Positions 4,956-56,700 of a stretch of DNA of 64,000 nucleotides are shown here, in pieces. Position 1 is the first letter of the stretch. Each line of letters starts with the position of its first letter. The notes under the pieces were generated by a model. It ran no database searches. It was given only the letters and a program-made list of their open reading frames with translations, and was not told the origin of the DNA. Origin of the DNA: Raja brachyura (Eukaryota); contig OY740786.1 of assembly GCA_963514005.1 (NCBI GenBank), positions 50,096,001 to 50,160,000 of the forward strand. The letters are read 5' to 3'. Position numbers and translations under genes: made by a program.

Positions 4956-6113
4956 AGAAAAGTCCTGTTCAGCTATCACCTCTGTGCTGATTGATTTATA
5001 TTGTTCTTTGGACAACATCTGCCCCAGAGATAAAATGGTCTTGCTTGTAGTCAAATCCTTCCAAGGCATTTCTATAAGCACATCAAAATCTTCCATAAAC
5101 TCCGTTCCTGCAACTCCAGCTTATAAAGCACTTGTCTTATTTTTAAATGGTAGGCATGAACTTTTTTGAAATATCCTCACCTCTCCAATTCTCTTTTGCC
5201 CTGCTTCAGCCTACATCCTTATACAAATGTGTCCATCAGTGTGTCTTGCTGTTACATTTTCCTTGATTCTGTAAAGCATTGGGGGATATTTTCTTACATT
5301 AACGCACTTTATAAAATCATGTTGTTGATGGTATTGTACACTTACTCCTTCATTGCTATTTAGTTATGCATCACAAAATGATTTTGTTTTATTTATTACA
5401 ATGGTTGTCGAGTAACGTCCACAATTATATTGCTGCTCTGAAATTACAATTGTATGGAGTTGTGGGAGAAATGTCCACACAAATTTTCTTCAGATAATGA
5501 CATATTATATGTGGAATTGATCCAAAACATTAAATTACTACGGTCTCACTTTTATTATTTAATATCAATCTGATCACATTAATGTCAGTGGTTAATATCG
5601 CACAAGTGATAGTCCCTTTATAAAACAGGAAGATTAGCTCAGACCAGTGACAAGGAAGTCCAGTTAAAATAATTTCTCTGGGTTTTTTTTTCTGTAAATA
5701 TGAGTGAAATTTGCATTCTAGTGTTGTTGCTGAATGTGTAGTGATACATGTTACAATTCTATGACAACAAATCAATATAAAAGCAGATATTAATGCAGGA
5801 TCTGAGCCTTATCAAGCCCTTTGTCCCTTAATGCAGCTTTAGTTTGTGATTTACAGCAACAAAGACAACTAGGATCCAGACAATTGTTTTATTGAGATTA
5901 AATGAGAACTTACCAGTTTGAAGTTTGATCTTTATTTTATGAGGAGTTGCGATGAGGGATTTTGTGAAGACCCCGCCAGCACGCATGCGCGACATTCTTC
6001 AAAGCAGCGGTGTGGAATCACAGAACCAACAACAAGGAAATGACTTGTTATAGTAAGATTGAAGAGACTCTATATACCAGTTGACCTTATGATAGAGGGT
6101 TGGGAGCGGAGGG

Positions 6114-6226
6114 CAAGAAATCCCTCATCGCAACGCCTCATAAAATAAAGATCAAACTTCAAACTGGTAAGTCCTCATTTAATCTTACTATTTCATTTCG
6201 GAGTCACGTGAGTGACTTCGTGAAGA
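6114..6226 (-). repeat. DIRS internal complementary region (ICR), copy 1
   Basis: 6114-6190 is the reverse complement of about 5895-5966, and 6190-6226 is the reverse complement of about 10325-10361. Confidence 0.9.
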
Positions 6227-6372
6227 TTTCAAAGCTCTGTGATTTCATGCCCTGGATCATGTCCATGCTCTCACACATGCCACAATATGAATGGATAGGA
6301 GTATAAACATGTTTCAGACTGAATGTACTGAAAAATAATAATGTTTATTAATCATAAACAAAAAGAAACCCC

Positions 6373-7367
6373 TCACTGGGGAATAACTGTATGTTGTTGA
6401 CCAGCACTCAGCACGGCCTCTGCGAACATAACAGGAGCGGTAACAGGTTTATTGTAAAACCGCTGAAAGGTGGCTTCACTAGCCCAGCCTGCTGTGGCAA
6501 AAATATGATCCATGGGCACCTCCATGACCTTCGCCGCCAACGTGGATGCAGCCCTGGTGGAATGGGATTTAAAGACATTAATGTCAATACCTGCTGCATC
6601 CAACATGACCCTGAGCCACCTGGAGATCATCTGTACTGACACTCTGTGATTTTGTTTCTTATGGCTTATCAGCAGATACTTCTCCATTCCCCTTAGGGTC
6701 CGCGTCACTTTTATATAATGATGGATATGGGTGGCTAAACAGAGCCTCACATCAGCGGGGTATACCGGAAAAACCAGCTGCAGCCCTGTAAATCCAGGTC
6801 TGTGCTGCTTCAGTAACTCGTCAATGTAAAAAGTTACTTTCTCCGGGGTAGAGACCATTCTGTCAATATTGATTTTTTGTAATGTCTGTACCCATTGTGC
6901 TGATGTTAGTGCCAATAACATCACCAATTTCAAGGCGAGTTTGTCCAAAGAAAGTCCAACCATGGGTGACCATGTCCTGAGTAGGGTTAATACTACCTCA
7001 ATGTCCCAGGTGACATTGTAACGTGGTCGGGGAGGGTTTGAATTAAATATACCCCTCATCAATTTGGGCACTAGTTTGTGTGATCCTACTTCAATGGTAA
7101 GGTAGGAGGATAGTGTACTTCTGGCACTATTGATGGCATTGATTGGTAGCTGAGGTGTTCATCATGATGCAACCCCGCAAGAAATTCCAACACATGTGGT
7201 ATAGTTTCGGAGTCATATGATATGTTCATCCGGCTGCAGTACGCCTCCCATTTTCTTATTTGGGTTAGGTATTGCCGTCTTGTTGACTCCCTGCACAATG
7301 CTCCGATGGTATCCATGGTCCTTGGTGTGAGACCATATTGCAGTAGGAGTCTGTTCAAAACCTGCAG
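6373..7367 (-). pseudogene. DIRS tyrosine recombinase, copy 1 (frameshifted)
   Basis: ORFs 7086-7493 and 6373-7071 carry HSTR, AGW and FY. The first catalytic Arg is changed to Trp (SAQW versus SAQR in copy 2). Confidence 0.9.
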
Positions 7368-8746
7368 GCCAATAAGTTCAAGTGACTGTGGCAGGGATGG
7401 CATTCCCCTGTAACAGGGTTCGTCACCAATTGAGGGCATTTTTCCAAAATAGCCCATGGTTCTCTGATCATCCCAAGAACCACCAGACACCATGGTTGTG
7501 TAGGCCAGTCAGGTATGATTAGAATGCCTTTTGCAGAATCTAATTTGATTTTCCGCAATATCCGACTGATGAGGCAAAATGGAGGAAATGCATAGAAAAA
7601 CCATTTCCCCCAGTGCAGCGAGAAAGCGTCCATCGCTATTGCCCCAGGATCTGGTTCCCATGATACATATGTTGGTACCTGATGGTTTAACCGTGACACA
7701 AATAGATCAATATCCGGTTTACCAAATTTGGCTGTGCTTTTTGTAAATATTTGGGGATTTAACATCCATTCAATGTTATCATTGAATATTCATGACCTGG
7801 TGTCCACCACTGTGTTGAGCTTACCTGGATATCCAAATATTACGTTGTATGCACCAGAGCCAAATTGTGTTAGCCAATTCATCGCAAGAAATTGACCTGA
7901 TACCGCCCATATGGTTTAAATATGCCACCACAGTGGTATTTTCTATTTGGAGATGGAATAAGCTCTTAGTCCGTAAAATGCTCCAAGCATCTCCAAATAA
8001 TTTATCCCTCGTGACAACAAAAGGGTAAATTCTTGTGAGTCCCATCTGCCACCACAACTAGAGTTGTTGTCAGTAGCTCCGCAGCCATGGGAACTTGCGT
8101 CAGTTTGTAAATACACCGACGCGCAAGGCACAATGATGGGTTTGAATGAGTTACAAATATTGTCAATTCACCATTGTAACTCAATTTTTGCCTTAATTGG
8201 CAGCTGCGTAGGTCTATCAAAATGTCCAGCATTCAATTTTAATGCTGAAATCTTGGATCTTTGCAAATTTTGATAATATAAAGGTCCAAATTGGGTAGCT
8301 GGAAAAGTGGCTATCAATTTCCCCATTACCTTGGCAGCATGCCTAATTGTTGGTGTACTGGCGCAGACCAGATTATTACATGCCTCGATGATGTCCATAG
8401 CTTTGTTAATTGGTATGGAGGTAATCATTTGATTGGTATCAACTGTGAATCCCAGATAGTCCATAACCTGTGATGGACAGAACTTTGATTTATCTGGATG
8501 GATTATAAACCCCATTTTTGGAATAATGAAACAGTGGCTGTGACTGCCAATTTCGTTGATTTCAGGGTATGTCCTATAATTAGGATATCATCCAAATATG
8601 CCATAACCATATGTTTTTGTCTTCTCAGTGTTGCTAACACTGGTTTTAGTAATTTGGTAAACAATTTGGGAGCTGTAGTAAGCCCATTAGGCAAGGCTTT
8701 GTATTGCCAAAGTTGATCCATCCAAACAATCTTCAACAACTTCCTG
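7355..8746 (-). pseudogene. DIRS pol remnant (partial RT, RNase H, adenine-MTase-like domain), copy 1
   Basis: ALPNGL, YLDD, TDAS, INYLEM, IDLF and YAFPPF are spread over several frameshifted ORFs. Confidence 0.9.
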
Positions 8747-10159
8747 AGCAATTTCAGGTGCCACAGATTCGTGAACCCGAATCTCTTCCTCTTCCCCTGG
8801 CTACCTTGTACTTCCCATCAATGATAGGGATATATTACCTCCCATTGAAAGTCTCCTGGAACTGGGCACGTCCTGCTGTTGCAGATTTTGTTAGAAACAT
8901 AGAAACATAGAAAATAGGTGCAGGAGTAGGCCATTCGGCCCTTCGAGCCTGCACCGCCATTCAATGTGATCATGGCTGATCATCCAACTCAGTATCCCGT
9001 ACCTGCCTTCTCTCCATACCCCCTGATCCCTTTAGCCACAAGTGCCACATCTAACGCCCTCTTAAATATAGCCAATGAACTGGCCTCAACTACCTTCTGT
9101 GGCAGAGAATTCCAGAGACTCACCACTCTCTGTGTAAAGAATGTTTTCCTCATTTCGGTCCTAAAGGAATTCCCCCTTATCCTTAGACTGTGACCCCTTG
9201 TTCTGGACTCCCCCAACATCGGGAACAATCTTCCAGCATCTAGCTGTCCAACCCCTTAAGAATTGTTGCAGGATGTGCTCCATCATACGTTCCATACATT
9301 CCATACGACCTTCTCCACCATATGCAGATGATAGGTCGGAACCCTCAGGTCTGAAGGAACTCCTGAGGCTTCTATCACTGGCCCGTACCTCATCGAGGTA
9401 AGAATCCCGGTGCCGTGATAGGAAGTTGCTACCTGCCGCAGCTGCGGGGCTATGCGACTCCCACGCAGACCCGCCGCTCGTTCACCGTCTTCCAAACGAG
9501 AATGGCCCGCTAGCCTCAAAGGACATATGCGGTGAAAAGGCGGCACCTGACGCCGCAGCGTGGTGACCCGACGTCCGCACGGGCTTGCCGCCTGTCCTCC
9601 TTATGGATAAAGGCGACGAACGGTCACATCCTGCCACTAATGGGCGGTGCGGTGACCGTGATGAGACTCCACCTGCCCGAGATTTACTGGCCTTGCTGGG
9701 TGGTGAGTCAATACTGGCCCTGGTTGGTATGCCAGTAGACCCTGGTCTCGATAATTCACCTGTCCGGTTTGTTCCGGTGAAAAATCAGCCCTAGCAGGGC
9801 TTGACTGTAGAGCAGCTCTTCCCCTAGCTCATCCTCGAGTGGCCCGAGTGGCTGGGTAGAAAGACCGTGCCGTAGAACGGGTAACACGTCTGCTCATCTC
9901 AACCAAACTCTCCCTTGCAGAGGGAGATAATGATAGAGTCAGGATCTTGTATTACCTGCTCTGGCGCTGTACTCCCACTTTGCTGTTCTGAAAGCAGCTG
10001 TGTAGGTGGGTCGGGTCCTGTGGTCCCAGGGCTGCCCGACTTTCGCGCCTTTTCCCCGGCCCGACTAGCAGGTGTTGCCGTTGTAGAAAGTAGCTCCGGG
10101 AAAAGTGGTCGTCGACTTCTTTCAGAAGTCCTGCGACCCGTATTTTTGCTCCTATCCAT
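8740..10159 (-). pseudogene. DIRS gag N-terminal remnant, copy 1
   Basis: MDRSKNTGRRTSERS..GPDPPTQL is homologous to the copy 2 gag start. Interrupted by CR1, frameshifts and the deletion. Confidence 0.8.
8893..9262 (-). mobile_element. CR1 3' fragment inserted in DIRS gag
   Basis: Tail AGAAACATAGAAACATAG and ORF ESRTRGHSLRI..FFTQRVVSLWNSLP. TTGTT at 8888-8892 and 9263-9267 is a candidate TSD. Confidence 0.9.
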
Positions 10160-11905
10160 ATTCCCTGTGAACAGAATAGTTCTAAAACTGGAAACAACCA
10201 GCTCAAGGTTAGCTATACTTACCTGAGCGGCTTCTTATGAAGGGCTGGTGGTGAGACGCGCTCCACCGCCAGCCGTCGACTGCAAATGCGAGCGACGATA
10301 TGTCGTGCATGCGTGCTAGTGGGGTCTTCACGAAGTCACTCACGTGACTCGGAAATGAAATCTGGGCAGTGAATCGGTAAATCTCTTCCGCACCCTCTCC
10401 AAAACCTCCACATTCTGTAATGGGGCGACTAGAACAGCACACAATAGACCAAATGTGATCTAACCAATGTCCTGTGAAGCTGCAACTTAACTCCCTGGAA
10501 ATCATCTCTACACTACTCTACCAACCTTCATATAATCTGGACAGAGTCATCTGAGGCAATTCCCTAGTTACATCATCATATGCCTTTATATCTATAAGGT
10601 CAGTAAGCAATCACCCTGAAACATTTTACAGTAGACAGCGAGTATTGTAATAGTGACTTTAGGAAATCATCCTGCTCTTCTGCAAAGGTACACTTCAGGT
10701 GTTTCTTTCCACACCCATTCCAAAGATAGGAAATGTTAGAGGGATTTGGGACAAAAACAGGCAGGTGGAATTAGTGTAGATGGGCATCTTGGTTGACATG
10801 GACAAGTTGGGCCGAAGGGTCTTTTTCTGCGCAAATGACTCTATAACTATCTCAAAGATATACAGGTTGGTAGGTGAGTGTTTGATGGTCAGCACAGACT
10901 GGTTGAGCTGAAGGATGTTGACATGTTATATCTCTCTATGATCCCATGTCTCTATTCCCTTCTCCATGGCTTCAATCACATTTATCCTTTCCAGCACCTC
11001 CCCTCCTTCCTCTCTCAGTCAAATTAAAGTCATTGTCATACAGCACTGAAACAAGTCATAAATCTCACCGATACTAGGCTGACAAACATGCATGTTTAAA
11101 ACAAATCTTAATACATGCTATTCTTCCCAAGTTTCCTTCAACTTCCCCTTCTGCTGTGTCTACTACGCATCTAGAGGAAAACAATGTGAACATGAAAAAA
11201 ACATACAAATTTCACATAGACAACACCGTCAATTTTTGTGTCATGTCCAATCTTAATATCTATGTTAATTACATTGTCAATCAATCTGTTAAAATAGATG
11301 ACAAACAACAGCAGACCCAGTACTTATTTCCGTACTTCTGTAGCATACCACTGGTCCCACGTCACCAGTCTGAATAACAACCTTCCACTGCCACACTCTG
11401 ACACCTCTCATGAGGCTATCTTATATCCAATTAGTTAGCTCAACCTGGATCTCTTGTAATCTGACAGACCAGCCTGCAGTGCAATACGTTCTTGTAAAAA
11501 GCCTTGTTAGAGTCCACATAGATGATCTTTACCACCCTGTCCAATACAATTGCACTGTCAAAAGAAAATTTGCTGGGTCAGTCCAGAAAAATCAATGATA
11601 ATGGACCCAAAGAGATATACAGAAATATGTTTCCAATGTTAGAATAGATAAATGCATCCCTATGGCTAAAACAATTCATCTGTACAAAGATTTGAAGCCA
11701 CCAATTTTCAGTATACTGATCACAGGGAGTTTTCAAGGTCATACTGACTATCTGACTATCATAGGATTTTTAAGGGTGAATGTCTGATGATATTTATATA
11801 TATCGAAGAATATTCCTAATTTTAAGATGGTATCACTAGGAGACTGACTTAGATCGCTGAGCCTAGACCAAATTAATCCTTTAAATGCAAAGATATTTTC
11901 ATATC

Positions 11906-25872: not shown

Positions 25873-28800
25873 TTAAACAGAATCGCCATAACGAACAGGT
25901 GGCTTGCTGATCCGGCCCGAGCGCGTACGGATGCCTCCCCCTTCCCCCGGAGGAGCAGAAAAAACAGGGGGACCCGAGACAGCAGGGGAACCAGGGAAGG
26001 GCGGTGGGGTTGGAGGAACAGCGGAGGGAGAACCGCGACTGCCAACAGGTGACCCGCGCAGAGGGGAACCGGGCGCTCGATATGGGGACCGAGGCATGCA
26101 GGGAACGCTGGCTGGGACAGGAGCCGGCTGCTGGTATGAGAGCGGCGGGGCATAGGGGCCCGGGGCCTGCGGCTTCGGCTCATTAACCGCAAGCAGGTGT
26201 TGTCGGCTTCTACGGTAGATGGTTCCCTCATAGTCGACCAGATACGAACGAGGTGAGTCGGCCACCCCAACCACAGTAGCCAGACGGGAGTGACCACTGG
26301 CGGTTTGCAATCGAACAACCTGTCCAGGCAACAGAGGATCGAGTGGTCTGCACGACCGATCGTGGGAACGCCGCTGGCTGTCATGTTTCTCTTGAATGCG
26401 CCTCTGCACAGAGGCAGGCTCCAGCGCCCGAGGTTTCAGCTGGCGCTGGGCAATCGGGATGGTAGATCTGGTTGTTCTGGACATCAGACGCTGAGCAGGG
26501 GACCCCATGGCCGGATCTCTGGAAACATTCCTGAGGTTCAGGAGATCCAAATACAAATCAGAGTTAGACAGTCTCGCTTGTTCCATCAGAAGCTTGGCGC
26601 TGCGGACGGCCCGTTCAGCAAGGCCGTTGCTCTGTGGGTACTCCGGGCTGCTGGTGAAATGCACAAAATTCCATTTGTCAGCAAAACTTTTGAACTCACG
26701 GCTGGTAAACTGCCTGCCATTGTCAGTCTGCAGCCTGACAGGGGACCCAAACGTGGAGAAGTGTTTCCGCAGCTTCCGGATCACCATCTCCGACGTGAGG
26801 GATGTCAGCAAATCCACCTCGAACCAGTTTGAGTACGAGTCGACCAGGACAAGGTAGTGGTTACCACGCCACTCGAAGATGTCGGCAGCCAGCGAGGACC
26901 AGGCCAAGGCAGGAGCGGGCTGTTGCAGCAGGGGCTGTCGCTGCTGATGTGGAGCAAGACTGTTGCACGTGGAGCAGGCAGAAACACGGTCTCGAATATA
27001 TTTGGCCATTCCAGGCCAGTAGAATTGGCACTGAGCATGGGCGAGTGTTGCATCGACCCCGGGGTGTCCGCTGTGGGCTGCGCAGTAGTAAGAATCGAAC
27101 AGGGAGGACGGGACCACCACTTTATGTCCCTTAACGATAACGCCATTCTGGAGCACCAGTTCGTCACGGACCAGGAAGAAGGGCTGTGTTTCAGGCGGTG
27201 CAGCGGAGCGCTTTGTTGGCCACCCTGATTTAATCACAGACGCAAGCCGTTGCCAAACTGGATCGGCAGCGGTGTGCTCGGCCAAAAGCTGCAGCTGCTT
27301 GGTGGGAATAAAATTGACGCCCAGTACGAGCAAGTCCTCTGTTTCGTAGGGGTGGCGAGCACAGGAGGCCCGCGGGGCGCGCGATAACGTGTCCGCGATG
27401 TGCATCTCGGTGCCTTTCTTGTAGACGATGTCGAAATCAAAGCGCTGGAGCTGCAGCATCATACGCTGCAGCCTGGCAGGGGCAGCATGAATCGGCTTGT
27501 TCAGGATTGTCACCAGTGGCTGGTGGTCGGTTTCGACTGTAAATCTGCTGCCAAACAGGAAGTCTCTGAACTTGGAGCAGGCAAACACCACCGCAAGCAG
27601 CTCCTTCTCGATCTGAGCGTACCGCTGCTCGGTGTCCGTCATGGTGCGGGAGGCATAGGAGACAGGATGTAACGATCCATCGACAGATTGGAGGCATGCC
27701 GCGCCCAGGCCGAACTTAGAAGCGTCACATGTGACGGTGATGGGGCGACTCGCATCAAAAAATCGCAACGTCGGAGTGTTAATCAGTTTCGACTTGAGAC
27801 AGTCAAACGCCTGCTGGTGCTGTGGGAGCCAGACCCAGGCGATATCCTTTTTTGTCAGCTGCCGCAGGGGAGCACTCAGCTCACTGAGATGTGGTACAAA
27901 CTTCCCAAGGTAGTTCACCATGCCCAAGAAACGTTGTAGACCTGGCACGTCGGTGGGGGCTGCCATCTCAGAGATGGCCGCTGCCTTCAAAGGGTCGGGT
28001 TTTAGTCCGTTAGAGGTGAAAACGTGTCCAACATACGTGACTTCTGAGACACGAAACCGGCACTTCTTTGGGTTCAGCTTCAGGTTGGCCTTTCGCGCCC
28101 GATCCAGGACGCGGCGGAGGTTCTGGTCATGTTCGGCAATGTCCTTCCCATAGACTAAGATGTCATCCACGATGATGGCACATGGCAAGCCCGAGAATAT
28201 CTGCTCCATCGTTCGCTGGAACACCTCACTAGCGGAATTGATGCCGAATGGCATTCGCAGGAATTTGAATCTGCCGAATGGTGTGGCGAAGGTTGTCAGG
28301 TCGGAAGATGCTTTGTCCAACGGGATCTGCCAGAACGAGTTCTTAGCGTCTAGGACCGAAAAGACGGTGGCTTGCCCGACCTGAGCCGCCACGTCCTCAA
28401 CAGACCGCATGGGGTAGTGTGGTCGCCTGATGGCAAGGTTTAAGTCCTTGGGGTTGATACACACACGTATTTCATTCTTGTCTTTCTTTATCGTGGCAAC
28501 CATGGTGGAGACCCAATCGGTGGGCTCGCTGACCGCTTCTAGCACCCCCTTGTCAACCATGTTGTTAAGCATCGCCTCGACCCCGTCTTTCATGGCGGGG
28601 GACACCCTGTGAGGTGCGCGGACCACGGGTTGTACATTTGGGTCAATGGAAATATGGTATGTCAGTGGTAACTTTCCCAGGTCATCGTTGAACAGGTCCT
28701 GGTATTCTGCAATCGGGTTAAATGACAGTTGCACTTTGTGGACCGTGTGGTCGAAGGACACCAGGCCAAGATCTTGGCACGCACGGTTTCCCAGCAGGGT

Positions 28801-30024
28801 AACACAGTCAGAGTTCAAAACATAAAAAATCAAGTTTCTCGTGGCCTTCTGTAGCCTGCAAGTTAAAGTGGCCCTCCCCACAGGCCTGAGAATTTCTCCA
28901 CCATAGGCATGCAGTGTAGCATTGTCAGCGACCAAGGCCTCATTAGTCCTTATCTTGTTGAAAAGATTTATTGACAAAACATTGACCTTTGCCCCAGTAT
29001 CTAACTTCGCAAGGAAGGTTACATTGTTGACAGTCACAGACACGGAGGGATCAAGACGTTGGCCAGGTGCCTGGAGGAGGGTAAACACATTCGAATCCTC
29101 GGGAGAATTAATTGGATCTGCATCATAGGATTCAGCAACATCGGGCTGTGGGTTGGAACAGCTATCAGATTGTTTAAGCATGTTTAGACTGGGTCTGGAA
29201 ATCTGTACCTGTCTCCCACGAGAACGGAATGAGCGGCAGGCAGAAGCGAAATGATTCAGTTTGTTACAAAAATTACAAGCCTTGCCATAGGCAGGGCACG
29301 TCGACCGTCTGTGGTGCATGTAGTTACAGTTAGGGCACCTTTTTGGGGGCACATCAGCAGGACCAGGGTTGGCACGCGGCAGAAAAGCATTGTTTCCCCT
29401 CTGAGGCGGGGCTCTACTAAATCCAGCCTGGTGAACAGACTTATCTCCCAAGTCCCGGTGATCATCTGGCAATACAACGACCTCAGACAATCTGCAGGCA
29501 TGCATGGCTTTTTCTAACGTTAGATCCGGATCCCTAAGAAGCTCACATCGCAGCTTCTGGTCACGCATGCCAGTTACTAAAATGTCTCTAGTGAGCTGGT
29601 CTGTCATGTCACCGAAACGGCACCGCTGGGCGAGATAACGCAAATCGGCAATAAAACATTCAGCATGTTCCTCCGGCAGCTGTCTCCTTGTAAAGAACCG
29701 TGCCCTCTCTAGAATGCGGTTCGAGGGCAGGTCACAAATCTCCCTGAACTTACGTAGCAGGCAAGCAGGGTCACTGGCAGATTCTGCAGGGGTAACCACC
29801 ACGTTGTTGTCGTCCAGGACCGCTGGAGCATAGACGAAAGTTCTGGCTCTCTTCATGGCATCAGGTCCGACAAGGTTGAGTAGGAGGGAGGCTTTGAGGG
29901 AGTCAGGATCATTGCGGTGAGCGACGTTGACAAAGTGGGTGAAATCAATTTCAAACGTAGCCCAGCGCTCAGAAATATCAGCATCAAAGACAAGCTGCGC
30001 GGGCTTTCTGCACGAGGATGCCAT
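25873..30024 (-). CDS. Gag-Pol polyprotein (Gag with two Cys/His knuckles, protease, RT, RNase H, integrase)
   Basis: Open frame 25873-30096, first ATG at 30024 (MASSCRK). Motifs CPNC..H..C, CNFCNKLNHFASAC, LDTGA, RMPFG, IVDD, TCDAS, AHSGH..CSTC, ADIF/TDNG/NGLAER and C-terminal TRSGR..KPP. Confidence 0.95.
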   Translation of the reverse strand: MASSCRKPAQLVFDADISERWATFEIDFTHFVNVAHRNDPDSLKASLLLNLVGPDAMKRARTFVYAPAVLDDNNVVVTPAESASDPACLLRKFREICDLPSNRILERARFFTRRQLPEEHAECFIADLRYLAQRCRFGDMTDQLTRDILVTGMRDQKLRCELLRDPDLTLEKAMHACRLSEVVVLPDDHRDLGDKSVHQAGFSRAPPQRGNNAFLPRANPGPADVPPKRCPNCNYMHHRRSTCPAYGKACNFCNKLNHFASACRSFRSRGRQVQISRPSLNMLKQSDSCSNPQPDVAESYDADPINSPEDSNVFTLLQAPGQRLDPSVSVTVNNVTFLAKLDTGAKVNVLSINLFNKIRTNEALVADNATLHAYGGEILRPVGRATLTCRLQKATRNLIFYVLNSDCVTLLGNRACQDLGLVSFDHTVHKVQLSFNPIAEYQDLFNDDLGKLPLTYHISIDPNVQPVVRAPHRVSPAMKDGVEAMLNNMVDKGVLEAVSEPTDWVSTMVATIKKDKNEIRVCINPKDLNLAIRRPHYPMRSVEDVAAQVGQATVFSVLDAKNSFWQIPLDKASSDLTTFATPFGRFKFLRMPFGINSASEVFQRTMEQIFSGLPCAIIVDDILVYGKDIAEHDQNLRRVLDRARKANLKLNPKKCRFRVSEVTYVGHVFTSNGLKPDPLKAAAISEMAAPTDVPGLQRFLGMVNYLGKFVPHLSELSAPLRQLTKKDIAWVWLPQHQQAFDCLKSKLINTPTLRFFDASRPITVTCDASKFGLGAACLQSVDGSLHPVSYASRTMTDTEQRYAQIEKELLAVVFACSKFRDFLFGSRFTVETDHQPLVTILNKPIHAAPARLQRMMLQLQRFDFDIVYKKGTEMHIADTLSRAPRASCARHPYETEDLLVLGVNFIPTKQLQLLAEHTAADPVWQRLASVIKSGWPTKRSAAPPETQPFFLVRDELVLQNGVIVKGHKVVVPSSLFDSYYCAAHSGHPGVDATLAHAQCQFYWPGMAKYIRDRVSACSTCNSLAPHQQRQPLLQQPAPALAWSSLAADIFEWRGNHYLVLVDSYSNWFEVDLLTSLTSEMVIRKLRKHFSTFGSPVRLQTDNGRQFTSREFKSFADKWNFVHFTSSPEYPQSNGLAERAVRSAKLLMEQARLSNSDLYLDLLNLRNVSRDPAMGSPAQRLMSRTTRSTIPIAQRQLKPRALEPASVQRRIQEKHDSQRRSHDRSCRPLDPLLPGQVVRLQTASGHSRLATVVGVADSPRSYLVDYEGTIYRRSRQHLLAVNEPKPQAPGPYAPPLSYQQPAPVPASVPCMPRSPYRAPGSPLRGSPVGSRGSPSAVPPTPPPFPGSPAVSGPPVFSAPPGEGGGIRTRSGRISKPPVRYGDSV

Positions 30025-30100
30025 GGTCAGAGAGATAAAGCACAAAAGGCACAAATCAAATAAAAGAAATAAAACCCGATGGGCAGGTAGGCGCAAGTAT

Positions 30101-30118
30101 CTTCCAGCTCCGACACCA
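30101..30118 (-). other. Primer binding site (tRNA-Leu-like)
   Basis: TGGTGTCGGAGCTGGAAG directly after the 5' LTR. It resembles the TGGTGTCAG-type Leu PBS; the tRNA assignment is tentative. Confidence 0.65.
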
Positions 30119-30321
30119 TGTAAATAGGCAATTTACAAACTCTAAAAGTGTTCAACACATTTTAATGATAGCACAAGGTATTACATACATCCTCAAATAC
30201 TGGCTACATTCTTCTAGTGAACCGTATCCAGGAAGGGGAAGGCGTTATGATTGATGTTAACTAGGCGGGGTTAATGGTACTGAGGTAACTATGTTATTGG
30301 TTGCATGCAAAACCATCTACA
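30119..30321 (-). repeat. Gypsy 5' LTR
   Basis: Identical to 25608-25810. Confidence 0.97.
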
Positions 30322-48268: not shown

Positions 48269-48737
48269 TCTTTGATAAAAAAATGTTCCACACTCATTAT
48301 TAATGTAAAGGCGCCAAAGTCACGCACATAACCAGTGACAGAACTGCAGCACCGCTAAAGGTAAGTTTTGTAACATACCTACTCATGTTAAATGGTCCAT
48401 GGTGTAACATGTAAGTTATGTTGTTCTAGAATTTTTACTGATTTTTTTCCCAGTAACAACCTGTGATGTAAAAGGCTGGTAAGCTTTCATTGGGGATGTA
48501 TTTGGGATGAAATCTGCATTATTATTTTTACATGTATTTGCCAGGATAATTTGTCCAGCAGTCTGTACCTACAAGGAGCCTGGCAAACTAGGCTGTGAAA
48601 GTGTAAATATGTTTTTGACTGACAACAACAAAAGGCTGTTCCACAGGAGGATGATCATCCATCTTGGTAATGCCTTTGTTTATTCCTGACTATGTTTACG
48701 CATAGTATTTAGGGAGCGCTGCTGTATTTCATTTTGG

Positions 48738-48783
48738 AGTCACGTGAGTGACTTTGTGAAGAACCCGCCAGCACGCATGCGCG
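48738..48783 (+). promoter_or_regulatory. Candidate internal promoter motifs in the DIRS 5' terminus (E-box, NRF1-like)
   Basis: AGTCACGTGAG and CACGCATGCGC. The E-box and the CACGCATGC core are also present in copy 1. Confidence 0.35.
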
Positions 48784-48930
48784 GCATATCGTCGCTACGC
48801 ATTTGCAGTCGACGGCTGGAGGTGGAGCGCGGCTTACCACCAGCCCTTCATAAGGGCCACTCAGGTAAGTACAGGCAACCTTGAGCTGGTTGTCCCTGCT
48901 GTTTTGAATTGTTTTTTCTCCAACAGGGAC

Positions 48931-50689
48931 ATGGATAAGAGGAGTACGGGCCGCAGGACTTCCGAAAGGAGTCGTTGGCCGCTTATCCCGGAGCTCTCTT
49001 CAACGACAGCACCCGCTAGACGGGCCGGGAGAAAGGCGCGAAAATTGGGGAGCCCTGTGTTTACAGGACCAGACCCACCGACACAGTTGTGCACAAGCGG
49101 GGTTCCCGCAGAGCAGGAAGTCGGTACGACGCCCTGACTCCATTTCATTATCGCCAACAGGATCGTTGGCTGATATGAGTAAACGGGTTTCACGTGCTGC
49201 TGCACGGCCCTTCTCCCTGAGCCCTCGTGGAAGAGCCAGGGATAGAGCTCAACAACCAAGCCCTTTTCGGACAGAGATTTCACCAGAGACCGCTAGATTG
49301 CGGACTGGTGGGTTAGCGAGACCCGAGTCCACTGGCAGACCAGGGAGGGCCAGTGTAGACTCACCACCTAGTTGGACCAGGAGGAGTCACACAGGTGGAG
49401 TCTCGCCACGGTCACCACATCCCCCGTTGGCGGCAAGACGGGACCGTACGCCGTCTGGGTCCAGGAAAATGACAGTCGGCAAGCCCGCGCGGATGTCGGG
49501 TCACCACGCTGCGGCGTTGGGTGCCGACTTCACACCGCATATGCCCTTGGAGGCAGTCGGGCCTAGCTCAGCCAAAAGGAGGCGTATGAGCAGATCCGCG
49601 CGGGAGTCGTTCAGTTTCGCTGAGGCGGCTGGCAGCGAATTTTCGTCACAGCACCGAGATTACCTCGACGAGGTACGGGCCGATGATAGGAGCCTCAGGA
49701 GTTCCTTCGGGCATGAGGACTCTGACCGCCTATTCGCGCACGATGAAGGGCGCATTGATCGGATGGAGAGGATGATGGAATGGATCCTGCAGCAAAATCA
49801 ACGGCGGGAAACATCCAGTTCCAGGGGACTCATGGACATATCCCCATCATCAATGGATAGCATGAGGCAGCCAGAAGAAAAGGAGATCTTGGTACACGTA
49901 CCAGTGGCACCTGAGGTCCCTCAGGAAGAACTCCTGGACGTGGCAGCCAAGTTTGCGTTACCCGAATCATCGGGACAACCCCTCAATACCAAACTGTCCG
50001 CTACCATTGATTTCCTCACCAACCATCAGCTACAGGATCAGGTCCTTGCGGAGGAATTGAACAGACACAAGGCACCGAGTAATTGTAACTCGCTCAATGT
50101 GCCTATTGTGAACATGCCTATTTGGGGCAATATTAGCCCGGGCATTAGAGCACAGGAAGTAAAGTTACAAAGAATCCTGAAACTGCTCACATCTGGGATT
50201 ACCGCTTTTGCGAGGTCGGTGGACGGTGTGGACTTGAACTCCGAACAGGAGGATGCTCTTGCACTACTATGCAACACGCAATATGAAATAAATGCGTTTC
50301 GGAAAAGCATCATCAAGCCTACGTTAAACCCCAAATTTGCGGGGCTATGCAGAGCATCCCCAACACCACCACCCAGACAGCTATTCGGAGAAGGCCTTCC
50401 GAAGCAGGTCAAGGATTTAGATGACCAAGCCAAGACAGTGGGTCTTATGAGGTCACACACCTTGACCAGACAAACGGCCAGGAAAACATCATATTTCAGG
50501 CCACGGGGTGATACCAAAAGGCCAGCAAGGACCTACATACCGGCGCCTCCACAATACCAACATTCTCAACAGCCCAGGCCTTTTTTAGGGCAAGGCCCGC
50601 AGCGGCCAGCATGGAAGATGCGGTTTCCGCATCACCAGCACAACCCAGCACCTCCACGTCCCACCAAACATATCAGGGACCGCCGATAA
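48931..50689 (+). pseudogene. DIRS gag-like ORF1 (one frameshift near 49133)
   Basis: ATG at 48931 (MDKRST). The frame continues as the 507-aa ORF 49166-50689 after a +1 shift, inferred from alignment with copy 1 (PDSI). Confidence 0.85.
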
Positions 50690-52610
50690 CCATGAAGGTA
50701 AGGCGGTCTGGATTTCATGCACTTGCATGTCTAACCTCACATGTTGGGGGTAGACTACGGTTTTTTAAGGAGGCATGGGAAACCATCACCTCAGATGAGT
50801 TTATCTTACAAAGTATTCAAGGCCATGAGATTGAGTTTATAAATGGTCAAATTCCTCCACCTCAGCTTATGCCGAATCGCAAATTTGCACTTTCCAGCAA
50901 GGAAACAGCAGTAGGCTATGCTGAAATCTTGAGACTACAAGGGAAAGGTGTGATAGAAAGAACTATACATGAACCAATTGAATTTGTATCTAACATATTC
51001 ACAAAAACCAAGAAAGATGGTGGATGTCGGGTCATTATAGATCTAACCCATTTGAATACTTTTGTAAAATATACCCATTTCAAAATGGACACGTTCAAAA
51101 CAGCCAAATCTTTGATTTCTGAGGGCTGCTTCATGGCATGCATTGATTTAAAAGATGCATACTATTCAGTATCCATTCAGAAACATCACAGGAAGTTCTT
51201 GAAGTTTACCTGGATGGATCAACTTTGGCAATACAAAGCTTTGCCCAATGGGCTTACCACAGCCCCCAGATTGTTTACTAAATTACTCAAGCCAGTGCTA
51301 GCAACACCGAGGAGGCAAAACCATACGGTTATGGCTTACCTGGATGATATCCTAATCATTGGGAATACACTGGAATCAGCAAAATTGGCAGTTTCAGCCA
51401 CTGTGGAAATATTTCAAAAAATGGGATTTATTATCCATCCAGATAAATCAGTTCTGTCCTTCACAGATCATGGACTATCTGGGATTCACGGTGGATTCCA
51501 TTCGCATGATTGCCACCATACCAACTAACAAAGTTGGGGATATCATTCAAGCATGTAAGAATCTGGTCTGCGCCAGTATACCATCAATCAGACAAGCTGC
51601 TAAGGTGATTGGGAAAATTGTACCAGTTTTTCCAGCTGCTCAATTCGGACCTTTACATTATCAAAATTTGCAAAGATCCAAGATTTCAGCGTTAAAATTG
51701 AATGCTGGACATTTTGATAGACCCATGCAGCTGCCATTTAAGGCAAAAACAATGGTGGATTGATAATATCCGTAACTCATTTAAACCCATCATTGTGCCT
51801 CGTCCGGTGGTATACTTACAAACAGACGCAAGCTCCCATGGGTGGGGAGCTACGGACAACAACACAAGTTGCGGAGGCAGATGGGACACCCTTGAATCTA
51901 CCCTGTTGTTATCACATGGGATAAATTATTTGGAGATGCTAGGAGCATTCCACGGACTTAGAGCTTATTGTTCAAACTTTACTGACACTCATGTCCGTCT
52001 CCAAATAGACAATACCACTGCGGTGGCATATCTAAATCATATGGGCGGTACCAGATCAATTTCATGTGATGAATTGGCAAATACAATTTGGCTCTGGTGC
52101 ATACAACGGAATATTTGGATTTCAGCTACCTATCTACCAGGTAAGCTCAATACAGTGGCGGACACCAGGTCACGGAAATTTAATGACAACATCGAGTGGA
52201 TGTTAAATCCCCAAATATTCACCAAAATTACAGCCTAATTTGGTAAACCGGATATTGACCTTTTTGAGTCACGGTTGAACCATCAGGTACCAACATACGT
52301 ATCATGGGAGCCAGATCCTGGGGCAATGGTGATGGACGCGTTCTCGCTAGATTGGGGGAAATGGTTTTTCTATGCATTTCCTCCATTTTGCCTCATCAGT
52401 CGGGTATTGCGGAAAATCCAGTTAGATGCTGCTAAAGGCATTCTTGTCATACCCGACTGGCCTACTCAGCCATGGTATCCGGTGGTCCTTGGATTGATCA
52501 GTCAACCATGGGTCCTCTTAGATGGTTGCCCACAATTGGTGACGAACCCTGTTACAGGGGAACAACATCCCTGCCATAGTCACTTGAAATTATTGGCTTG
52601 CAGGTTCTGA
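50611..52610 (+). pseudogene. DIRS pol (RT, RNase H, adenine-MTase-like domain) with two frameshifts and one stop
   Basis: VGGRL, IDLKDAYYSV, ALPNGL, YLDD, TDAS..GWGA, IDN, N..AD..SR, YAFPPF. Breaks at about 51450, about 51750 and TAA 52236-52238. Confidence 0.93.
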
Positions 52611-53587
52611 ACAGACCATTACTGCAGTATGGTCTCTCATCAAGGACAATGGATACAATTGGAGCATCATGCAGGGAGTCCACAAGACGGCAATATTTAA
52701 CGCATATCAGGAAATGGGAAACCTACTGCGGCCGCTTGAACATTGCATATGACTCCGTTTCAATCACAGATGTGCTGGAATTCCTTGCTGGGTTGTATCA
52801 TGACGAACACCTCAGCTGCAGTGCCATCAATAGCGCCAGGAGTGCGCTATCATTCTACCTCAATATTGAAGTAGGATCCAATAAACTGGTGTCCAAACTG
52901 ATGTGGGGAATATTTAATTCCAATCCGCCAAGACCCCGTTACAACGTCACCTGGGACATTGGGAAAGTTCTAACCCTACTCAGGACGTGGTCGCCCATGG
53001 CTGGGCTTGAATTGGACAAACTCACCCTGAAGCTGGTGATGTTATTGGCACTTACTTCAGCACAAAGGGTACAGACATTTCATAAGGTCAAGATTGACAG
53101 AATGTTCTCTACCCCAGAGAAAGTAATTTTCTTTGTTGATGAATTACTAAAGCAGCATAGACCTGGATACACAGGGCTGCAGCTGGTGTTTCCAGCATAC
53201 CCCACTGATGCTAGGCTATGTTTAGCCACCCATATCCGCCACTATATAAGAGTGACGCGGAAATTAAGGGGAATGGAAAAATACCTGCTAATCAGCCACA
53301 AAAAACCTCACCATAGAGTGACGGTACAGACGATCTCCAGATGGCTCAGGATCGTCTTGAACGAAGCAGGTATTGACACCAATGTCTTTAAATCCCATTC
53401 CACCAGGGCTGCATCAACATTGGCGGCAAAGGTCATGGAGGTGCCCATGGACCATATTCTTGCCACAGCGGGATGGGCTAGTGAAGCCACCTTTCAACAG
53501 TTTTATAACAAACCTGTTACCGCTCCTGTAATGTTCGCAGAGGCCGTGCTGAATGCGGGTCAAGAACATACAACTACTCCCCAGTGA
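52598..53587 (+). CDS. DIRS tyrosine recombinase, open frame
   Basis: 329-codon ORF with SAQR, HSTR, AGW and FY (R-H-R-W-Y set). First in-frame ATG at 52649. Confidence 0.9.
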   Translation: MQVLNRPLLQYGLSSRTMDTIGASCRESTRRQYLTHIRKWETYCGRLNIAYDSVSITDVLEFLAGLYHDEHLSCSAINSARSALSFYLNIEVGSNKLVSKLMWGIFNSNPPRPRYNVTWDIGKVLTLLRTWSPMAGLELDKLTLKLVMLLALTSAQRVQTFHKVKIDRMFSTPEKVIFFVDELLKQHRPGYTGLQLVFPAYPTDARLCLATHIRHYIRVTRKLRGMEKYLLISHKKPHHRVTVQTISRWLRIVLNEAGIDTNVFKSHSTRAASTLAAKVMEVPMDHILATAGWASEATFQQFYNKPVTAPVMFAEAVLNAGQEHTTTPQ

Positions 53588-53685
53588 GGGTTTTTTTCTT
53601 TTTGTTATTATTAATAAATATTATTATTTTTCAGTAGAAGCAGTCCGAAAATTTGATTACTCCTATCCATCCTTACAGTGGATCT

Positions 53686-53785
53686 ACTCGCGTGACTCCA
53701 AAATGAAATAGTAAGATTAAACGAGAACTTACCAGTTTGAAGTTTGATCTTTATTTTATGAGGAGTTGCGATGAGGGATTTCGTG
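53686..53785 (+). repeat. DIRS internal complementary region (ICR), copy 2
   Basis: Reverse complement of 48725-48749 joined to the reverse complement of 53934-54013, overlapping at TATTT. Confidence 0.92.
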
Positions 53786-56700
53786 CCCTCCGCTCCCAAC
53801 CCTCGATCATAAAGTCAACTGGTAATTAGAGTCTCTTCAATCTTACTATAACAAGTCATTTCTTTGTTTGTTGGTTCTGTGATTCCACACCGCTGCTTTG
53901 AAGAATGTCGCGCATGCGTGCTGCCGGGTTCTTCACGAAATCGCTCATCGCAACTCCTCATAAAATAAAGATCAAACTTCAAACTGGTAAGTTCTCGTTT
54001 AATCTTACTATTTTGATAACCACTGTAAACAAGGGATCTAAAAACAAATAGAGCAGCCTTCTAATCTACCCAGAAGCTCTGAGAATTGTTGAGAAAAGCC
54101 CTGTCATATAATTCACCACCATAATGTTAATAGAGTTGATCATTTGATTTATTTGGTGTAGAAATCTCAAAGATGTCCATGAATCTTTGAGACTAGTGAT
54201 GTTGATCTCTTCCCAAATTTGTGACATTATGCATAATCGTATTGACAGATAGTAACATCTTCTAATGAATGTTGCCAACCTTCTCTTAATCTCAACCATC
54301 ATGCAATGTCACCCTCAGACAAGGTAACAACTAGAGTTGAGTTTAGTTTATTGTCATGTGTACCGAGGTACAGTGAAAAGCTTTTTGTTGCCCGCTTACT
54401 TTTCCATTCTGTCTGTTTTCCTTGATGTGGTGAGAGCTGAAACAGATAAGTGGGTGGTAAAAGGATATGCAGCTCATCTTGCAGGGTATGAGGTGAGACA
54501 GTAATTCAACAAGAAAAGGTGGATTAGATATGAATGAAACCTGCACAATTGTTTATGGGAATCGATGCAGGAGAGAGAATGTGTACTGGGTCCTTTGGTG
54601 TGGTAGGACTCTGCTGCCTGGAATTGTGTGCATTCTTTACTTGCAAAAAGGACGGGAGCAAACCCATGAGAATACTTCAAAAATAGCTTGTTAATTTGGG
54701 ATATCTTGTAATTATTTAACTGGCAATTTGTTCTTTTTTAGTATCACTAACATTTTTCCAAAGCTGTTAAATTGTGCTCCAATTTGAAGATTATAAACGG
54801 AACAATAACTATTCGAGTGCAAAGTCTGGTAAGATGGAAAGAGAGTGATGGAAAATGGTGAGATGAGGTGCTGATGTGAAGGTTTGTGTACACCATGCAT
54901 TGTAAGCTCACTGGTAGTGGTAGAAATAAGTTATATTCTTACCTTGATTACGCTACTGAGGTCAATGGATTTTATCCATCATTACAGTCTTCGTTTTTAG
55001 AGATAAACTCCAAAATAACATTTTTAGGGAGTTTTAGACAAAGATTGGTAGTGCTGGTTCTGGATTTCTCATGTTGATGTAGAGGTCTGAGCATTTTCAT
55101 AATCAAAGACTCGGGCATCTTGTAAACACATTTTCTTCTGAAAGAGGAGGAGGTAGTCAAGCCAGGTACAATTAAAACATTTAAAATATATTAACAGTAG
55201 TTAGGTAAATTAATGTAAAGGTTTAGATGGATATGTGCCAAAGGCAGGCAAATAGAGCTATCTCAGATAGACAACTTTTTTTGTCAGCTTGGACAAGTTG
55301 GGCTGAAGGTCCTGTTTCCATGCTGTATAACTTTATGATTCAAAACCATTCAAACTGAACATGGAATGAGTGCTAATACTTCAGTGTCGGTGAATATTCA
55401 AACCTGTCTACAATGAAAATAAATAAGTTCTTCTGAAAACCTTAGTTAAATCTATAAATGATAATGTCATCTTTTGTTTGCTGCTCTCTTGAAGTTGATG
55501 TGGAGAAAATATTATGTTTAGTGTTAATCATCTAACCCCGAAACCATTCTGAGATTCAGGATTGACACAACTTATTGACAAAATAGTTCTTAGAGTCATG
55601 GTATGGTAACAGTTAAGATTTTTTTTTTGCTGTTCTGGATAATACCAAGATATGGCTGCAGTTATTATAGTTACCCTTGTCTCCTCTATTTTTTATGTTT
55701 GCATCATACATATTTTATGATATCGTCCTCTTCTTGGCATTTTTAAGTAGTAGCTGATGAAAATGTGGTAATAGCATTCTAAGATGCCAAATGCATGTGT
55801 GATATCAGCATTTTTATTTGTTTACAATATGAGACCATTAATCTGGCGGCAGGCATTTATTGCCCACTCTTAATTGACTTTCAAAACCTAATGGAATTCC
55901 AACTTGAACTGCCGTGGTCATAATGCACAGAAACAGACCCTTCAGCACCAACTTTTCCCTTGCCGACCAAGATGCCCGATCTACGTTCCTGTGTTTGGCC
56001 CACATCCCTCTGAGCCTTTCCTATCGTGTGCCTGTCCAAATAAAACAAAAATGATTTATATCATAGCTTTAATATGGTAATTAAAACAAATATCCTATGG
56101 AGTGGACAAGGTACACAAACAATAAGCCATAACAGAAACATTGGAGAAATGATCATATGCATGATCAAGCAATAAGTTTTGCAATAAGTACCTGCTGTAG
56201 TTGAGGAGGGATTTTGAGGATTTAGAGCAACCATTTGGATGCCTACCTTGTCACACTGAGGCATATAAATGTACCCTGTGCATCATATAACCCATGTACA
56301 TAAGATCAAATTACAACACAAGATGGAGCACCACCCTCACCACCATCCCCAAGAATGTTTCTCAATATTTCAATAAAGTATTTTATACACTGTTGTAGTA
56401 TATGTTGGTTTTAATTAAGATCAATTAAAAATAAATTAGGTTGTAGCGTAGATGACAAATCCATAATGTTGGATTGTCATTCTGGCAATGAAGATGACAA
56501 ATGTCTGTTAATAACAGAAGGGAATTCAGTGAACATATGGTTCCCTTGGAGGGTAAATTACAAGGGCAAGAATTACAATGATTAGTTATGAAGGTTCAAT
56601 GAATATGCATGGATTTATTGAGCTTTAAATCTCATGCAAATCATCAGGAATATTGAATTGCATCATTATTGTGCCCTAGTCACAGGGTATAAAGCCAACC

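Follow-up and report, generated by a model that had tools for sequence, protein, structure and literature searches.

A DIRS1-like retrotransposon occupies positions 48725–54013 of the window (the whole stretch of Raja brachyura DNA analysed here, 64,000 nucleotides (nt) long), and it probably reaches its two enzymatic products by combining a −1 ribosomal frameshift at the end of gag with removal of pol by splicing. Gag itself would be made by ordinary translation from the ATG at 48931. A predicted −1 slip at U_UUU_UUA (50581–50587) would lead into a linker of about 37 codons, from which translation of unspliced RNA would continue into reverse transcriptase (RT), RNase H (RH) and methyltransferase-like (MT) sequence to give Gag–Pol; on RNA spliced at 50697^52604 (^ marks a splice point), from which pol is removed, the same slip would give a fusion of Gag to the tyrosine recombinase (YR), or Gag–YR. 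Being fused to Gag, both enzymes would be brought into the particle. We assign this model as a whole a probability of about 0.7. Its splicing component is very probably real and, with slightly less assurance, frameshifting is held to be the main route into the −1 frame; the ribosomal slip, the spliceosomal origin of the join and the existence of the fusion proteins are likely, as judged from sequence. The initial annotation of this DNA had noted two donor-like sites (D1 and D2) and three acceptor-like sites (A1 to A3), all five of which are found where it placed them, and had read them as a scheme in which D1–A1 splicing yields Gag, D1–A2 yields Pol, and D1–A2 together with D2–A3 yields YR. 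The feature is real and was partly misread. The parts of the element that carry the argument are the following.

48931..50689 (+), gag-like open reading frame (ORF1), from ATG 48931 to the stop TAA at 50687–50689; broken in the window copy after 49132
50581..50587 (+), slippery heptamer T TTT TTA in gag register, then GGG (the earlier A2); predicted −1 frameshift site
50588..50697 (+), −1-frame linker of about 37 codons, common to the predicted Gag–Pol and Gag–YR; holds ATG 50611 (not conserved) and ACC-ATG 50692 (locally conserved)
50695..50703 (+), donor D2, AAG^GTAAGG, 8 nt past the gag stop, in pol phase 0
50698..52603 (+), predicted GT–AG intron of 1,906 nt, holding the RT, RNase H and methyltransferase-like coding sequence
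within 50698..52603 (+), pol (RT, RNase H, methyltransferase-like); window copy broken after 51450 and 51748
52590..52603 (+), acceptor A3, ...TTGGCTTGCAG^, in YR phase 0, just 24 nt downstream of the point where the YR frame opens
52604..53587 (+), YR exon of 327 codons, with Phage_int_SAM_4 and Phage_integrase

The case for these signals rests on comparison and not on motif strength, because motif counts in the window do not by themselves rise above chance: the donor motif MAGGTRAG occurs 13 times against 8.8 expected, a count as high being seen in 14 of 100 shuffles, and a strict acceptor pattern occurs 33 times against 25 expected, with A1, A2 and A3 not among its matches. Conservation among copies that are 95–98% identical was set aside as shared ancestry. 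The genome, of 2.7 Gb, contains 3,183 candidates for the element family; those sampled belong to family 1 (the window element), family 2 (a second element of the window, copy 1), family 3 and family 4 (pol about 60% identical), with single members of others.

The proposal that D2–A3 is a 1,906-nt intron, in phase 0 at both ends, whose loss removes pol and places YR in phase, is supported by junction copies and by the phase of donors and acceptors in distant families. A 21-letter probe of the predicted D2^A3 join matches 86 places in the genome, and its control none. Exactly the D2–A3 span is missing from all 40 junction copies that were fetched, gag, YR and the 3' end being retained, and these copies are 72–76% identical to the window element in gag and 77–84% in YR. 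The D1-like donor is unspliced in 17 of the 18 that were extended upstream. Full-length relatives of this pol-less lineage carry GT and CAG at the two ends of the intron. The D2–A3 span has GT–AG ends, is conserved and in phase, and is precisely lost in retrocopies. In a tree built from the 3' part of gag, the large pol-less lineage is one clade (100/99); in the YR tree its copies are intermixed with full-length copies of family 3, which is a sign of recombination.

A second probe gave six matches, two of which are further junction copies (L246 and L247) that lie nested among full-length copies; the other four are not junction copies. Placing L246 and L247 in one clade with the large lineage is rejected by the approximately unbiased (AU) test (p 2.6e-47). 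In both, the 60-nt flanks on either side of the junction match a full-length copy with 0 mismatches, while differing from the large lineage by 6 and by 3 or more letters, respectively. Most simply, this second pol-less lineage arose separately from the large one. Other deletions of at least 100 nt number 20 in 60 copies, and each of them is different. In contigs of four sequence sets, one of them possibly RNA, the joints listed (15 of 62 and 15 of 21) include no GT–AG joint at the predicted sites, a result that weighs neither way.

The pol-less copies (L061-L100, L246 and L247), which are non-autonomous elements with gag and YR, have a 5' end that cannot be aligned to the window; the first ORF there has 47 codons, accompanied by tandem repeats and a 52-nt donor–acceptor pair abutting the ATG, and their YR part recombines with full-length copies. 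Another strong donor-like sequence, CAG^GTAAG, lies inside RNase H at the LPGK motif (window 52138-52145, plus strand, pol phase 1); it is kept in copy 1 (7820-7827, minus strand) and in family 4, and may be protein-driven.

More distant relatives were drawn from the best 80 of 453 metagenome loci plus one locus from a prokaryote genome, which collapse into 55 clusters with about 37–55% identity in pol. Prokaryote genomes gave two loci, one of them a usable DIRS, and viral contigs contained no relative. Gag and pol overlap in −1 in 33 clusters, are fused in frame in 6 and overlap in +1 in 1; another 7 are broken, and the remaining 8 lack a gag match. For each of the 33 clusters whose overlap is −1, the best donor was taken from the stretch between −30 and +70 nt around the gag stop. 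It stands in pol phase 0 in 31 of them, as against 113 of 330 control windows, and scores at least 5 of 7 in 30, as against 37 of 330. A phase-0 donor is also present in 4 of the 6 clusters with gag and pol fused in frame. At the other end of the predicted intron, 42 of the 46 clusters with a YR match have an FPPF motif some 215 nt upstream of where A3 lies. In 32 clusters FPPF is followed, after a pyrimidine-rich tract, by an AG in YR phase 0 (the FPPF-S acceptor); from there onward the YR frame is open in 31 of the 32, and in 8 of these clusters the TAG of the acceptor is the last stop of the YR frame, which opens exactly there. Eight clusters are of the FPPF-C type, as is the window element: four have a proximal TGCAG and a YR frame that becomes open 21–174 nt ahead of it, three have another in-phase YAG at −201, and one has none. 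Across the clusters, the point where the YR frame becomes open follows the position of the acceptor. Two predicted NCBI gene models named Diadema antillarum (sea urchin) connect the −1 linker with YR at the corresponding place, and a predicted Holothuria model enters YR there. One locus, L162, is a complete DIRS of animal type with gag and pol in frame, on a contig of a bacterial metagenome-assembled genome (Sedimenticola sp.), which is likely host contamination.

The same comparisons bear on the site called A2, which is more plausibly a −1 ribosomal frameshift site than a splice acceptor. In gag register it reads CCT TTT TTA GGG, and pol lies in the −1 frame; the heptamer has the form X_XXY_YYZ and sits in the zero-frame register, and the −1 frame beyond it is open. 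The −1 frame is open from the heptamer to D2 in nearly all copies of families 1 and 2 that have the six-T run, and in family 4. A slippery heptamer in gag register is present in 29 of the 33 distant clusters with a −1 overlap, as against 1 and 0 in the other two registers (TTTTTTA in 18, AAAAAAC in 9, TTTTTTG in 2). It is followed by G, making an AG, in only 12 of the 29; the other 17 are AAAAAAC, TTTTTTG, or TTTTTTA with a T after it. In two clusters the heptamer is the very point at which the pol frame opens, and 17 of the 33 have no pol-frame Met ahead of the first RT motif. U_UUU_UUA is the shift site of human immunodeficiency virus (HIV), and A_AAA_AAC is among the most shifty heptamers on mammalian ribosomes, according to the accessible part of PMC5009743. 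Of 40 copies from the large pol-less lineage, 39 have a T-run shortened by 2 nt, which puts gag in frame with YR; the second pol-less lineage keeps the heptamer. Downstream of the site, families 1 and 3 can form a small GGCC hairpin, with z values of −1.4 (72 nt) and −2.8 (112 nt). Variants of T-run length (+1, +2) occur in the single copies L039, L043, L047, L049 and L114. These variants are reminiscent of the reverse-transcriptase slippage that reportedly takes place at the HIV shift motif (PMC5737442).

The upstream sites D1 and A1 stand apart from this core.

48862..48870 (+), putative donor D1, CAG^GTAAGT, present in families 1–5 of the genome, with only candidate acceptor partners
48911..48926 (+), A1, acceptor-like tract 4 nt ahead of the gag ATG; 62-nt candidate intron

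Across the families of the genome, D1 is separated from the acceptor-like tract by 50–63 nt, the tract being absent or degenerate in family 4; the lengths that had been reported for D1–A1, 62 nt in the window element and 58 nt in copy 1, are correct. Family-1 and degenerate probes find no genomic copy joined D1^A1, D1^A2 or D1^A3, and the D1-like donor has no consistent counterpart in 24 distant clusters. D1 is likely a U1-binding site or a donor of the 5' untranslated region that is specific to this clade. Either splicing from it is infrequent or the resulting RNA seems not to return to the genome as copies. Retroviral packaging signals, which lie downstream of the major donor, offer a parallel for such uncopied RNA. 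For the gag exon of DIRS origin that TMPO and ZNF451 co-opted, an acceptor of its own has been inferred (accessible part of PMC4495291), which fits a site of the A1 type. Between D1 and A1 (window 48878-48894), the motif AACCTTGAG(C/T)TGG is conserved in families 1, 2, 3 and 5 and partly in the pol-less lineages, and is a candidate packaging or promoter element. In the family-4 copy L160 (1805-1960), an upstream ATG begins a gag frame that runs uninterrupted through D1, which lies in phase 0; splicing directly from D1 to A3 would therefore be in frame with YR, in this young family alone.

Several points weigh against the frameshift-and-splice model. Since the large pol-less lineage is a single clade in the gag tree, the 86 junction copies are mostly one amplified event. 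Families 1, 2 and 4 yielded no junction copy of their own with D2^A3 probes: the family-4 probe has 0 matches in the genome, and the family-1/2 probe has 1, which belongs to the large lineage. D2 and A3 share AGGT, so that a template switch could yield an identical join; L246 and L247 share the unusual 5' end of the large lineage, which leaves room for a recombinant origin or a double template switch around the junction. The gag of the large lineage is full of stops, and its in-frame fusion to YR may therefore be accidental and is only suggestive. No conserved stimulatory hairpin emerged downstream of the heptamer: folds differ between families, and the small GGCC hairpin is not kept in families 2 and 4. 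The 55 distant clusters are related by descent. The AGY count of 32/33 is not independent evidence, because serine AGY and TCN codons rarely interchange. Finally, the ACC-ATG at 50692, just before D2, is conserved in all families of the genome and could be a real start; frameshifting leaves it unexplained, which keeps alive two of the alternatives considered below.

One of these retains the original splicing scheme: D1 would splice to A1 for Gag or to A2 for Pol, and D1–A2 plus D2–A3 would give YR from ATG 50611 or, by leaky scanning, from ACC-ATG 50692. Such a scheme is unlikely, and could also run alongside frameshifting in this clade. Consistent with it, the AG after the T-run is kept in nearly all sampled full-length copies of the genome, D1 persists even in family 4, whose A1 is degenerate, the 50611 position has a perfect Kozak context in family 3, and ACC-ATG 50692 is conserved in families 1–5. 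ATG 50611, however, is replaced by GTG in all 17 aligned copies of family 2 and is absent from family 4, and the first ATG after the heptamer belongs to the gag frame in 15/15 family-2 and 10/10 family-4 copies, and to the pol frame in family 1 and the majority of family 3. The AG is missing from 17 of 29 distant homologues, where there is no consistent D1 either, the genome holds none of the D1 joins, and splicing has no need for pol to be placed in −1 relative to gag. Pol made from ATG 50611 through D1–A2 is thus not supported as the main route, the ATG being lost in two of four families and A2 being the slippery heptamer; the conservation of sites across copies that was to accompany it holds for D1 and D2 within the families of the genome and not for the distant homologues of A2, which often lack the AG.

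Somewhat less likely still is a stop–restart route, in which ribosomes that terminate at the Gag TAA (50687) would reinitiate two bases on, at ATG 50692, giving free Pol from unspliced RNA and free YR from D2–A3-spliced RNA. The near invariance of TAA-CC-ATG-(G/A)AG^GT in all families of the genome speaks for such a route, but any pol-frame ATG upstream of the donor is found in only 7 of 31 distant clusters, and the in-register heptamer is left unexplained. It is very improbable that there is no splicing at all, the pol-less copies being microhomology deletions at AGGT and YR being made from an internal ATG at 52649 or through a second frameshift. The AGGT common to both ends, the one dominant founder event and the −1 position of YR relative to pol in nearly all clusters are all compatible with this. 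Yet the element offers about 28,900 pairs of identical 4-mers at least 1 kb apart, and the join that recurs is the one predicted beforehand from splice motifs; the phase and position of the donor are conserved, ATG 52649 is not kept in family 4, and a search of the pol/YR overlap of the clusters for a second frameshift revealed no consistent heptamer.

The remaining features of the element and its neighbour are these.

48725..48787 (+), left terminal repeat; its 5' 25 nt are complementary to the internal complementary region (ICR), and the next 43 nt are inverted relative to the right terminus
53686..53785 (+), ICR, with complementary pairs to both termini
53905..54013 (+), right terminal repeat and extension, with complementary pairs to the left terminus and the ICR
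5895..10361 (−), copy 1, family 2, 72–83% identity; an insertion, and a deletion spanning the heptamer and D2; D1, A1 and A3 kept

The assignment to DIRS1-like retrotransposons follows from the termini and ICR, from the RT and tyrosine recombinase domains, and from a weak Dam-like match in a related family. The inverted terminal repeats (ITRs) and the ICR pair as 48745–48787/53905–53947, 48725–48749/53686–53710 and 53706–53785/53934–54013. In Pfam, the RT ORF matches PF00078 (E 4.7e-19), and the recombinase matches PF00589 and PF13495 in place of a DDE integrase. The methyltransferase-like domain PF05869 is matched in family-4 pol with an E of 0.0035, which is below the cut-off; it is present in several homologues and absent from the window pol fragment. 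The ORF1 product has no Pfam match, and its 580–590-amino-acid ORF sits where gag is expected. ATG 48931 is the gag start of the family, because it opens this frame through to the gag stop in 4 of 20 sister copies; as an annotated start it holds for the family, while in the window copy it is out of frame with the long gag ORF. Pol is open to 52608 in 4 of 20 sister copies. The counterparts assigned to D1, A1 and A3 in copy 1 are confirmed at 10222, 10165 and 7362, and the positions of A2 and D2 do lie inside its gap. A short non-DIRS insertion inside the gag of copy 1 (window 8880-9260, minus strand) resembles the 3' end of a long interspersed element (LINE). DIRS copies are often nested in, or adjoin, other DIRS copies (L033+L160, L116, L119). 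The window also holds, at 25873-30132 on the minus strand, an intact single ORF of 1,419 amino acids encoding the polyprotein of a Gypsy-like long terminal repeat (LTR) retrotransposon.

The element belongs to a known class, and what appears new is the variant of expression strategy proposed for it, a frameshift with a splice. DIRS1-like elements described previously (Piednoël et al. 2011, PMC3266345; Xenopus families, PMC9210276) have the same ITRs and ICR and the same order of gag, RT-RH-MT and YR ORFs; in their accessible parts, these papers do not mention splicing, invoke frameshifts only for broken copies or not at all, and give no mechanism for the translation of ORF2 and ORF3. No published description of native DIRS splicing or frameshifting was found in the accessible literature, key subscription papers and Repbase entries being outside this coverage; none appears in the available passages of PMC7192593, PMC6681497, PMC5633606, PMC12440569, PMC3537659, PMC3950715 and bioRxiv 10.64898/2026.05.21.726589 either. 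The gag-pol junction of HIV-1, as presented in the accessible parts of PMC5009743 and PMC4373837, has an identical heptamer in the same register, the same following GGG, and pol in −1 to gag. The resemblance to HIV-1 and to LTR retroelements is one of working principle only, since the DIRS element has no LTRs, protease or DDE integrase; it also differs from HIV-1 in that no conserved stimulatory stem-loop is shown and in that a single slip would serve two alternative enzymes, with splicing deciding between them. Retroviral env and foamy-virus pol are expressed from subgenomic spliced RNAs, and spliced retroelement RNA sometimes leaves intron-less retrocopies. The likeness lies in a downstream gene being reached by splicing and in the spliced RNA being occasionally copied back; the difference is that the donor here is at the end of gag and not in the leader, so that the downstream protein would be a Gag fusion with no start codon of its own.

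Beyond this genome, it is on balance probable, with less confidence than for the element itself, that a broad animal clade of DIRS1-like elements uses one −1 frameshift at the end of gag to feed RT/RNase H from unspliced RNA or YR from RNA with pol spliced out, both as Gag fusions. This reading adds a donor beside the gag stop and an acceptor hidden in the methyltransferase coding sequence, the pol/YR overlap marking the place of the acceptor. Reviews and surveys, in their accessible parts, describe three overlapping DIRS ORFs and not how ORF2 and ORF3, which often lack start codons, come to be translated; the signals offered here are exact, namely a heptamer, a donor and either of two acceptor positions. 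If the model is true, the proteins of these elements would be Gag–Pol and Gag–YR rather than the free ORFs that are annotated, the place where the YR frame opens would be explained, the non-autonomous lineage of at least 86 copies would consist of spliced retrocopies, and DIRS would join the elements that use −1 frameshifting.

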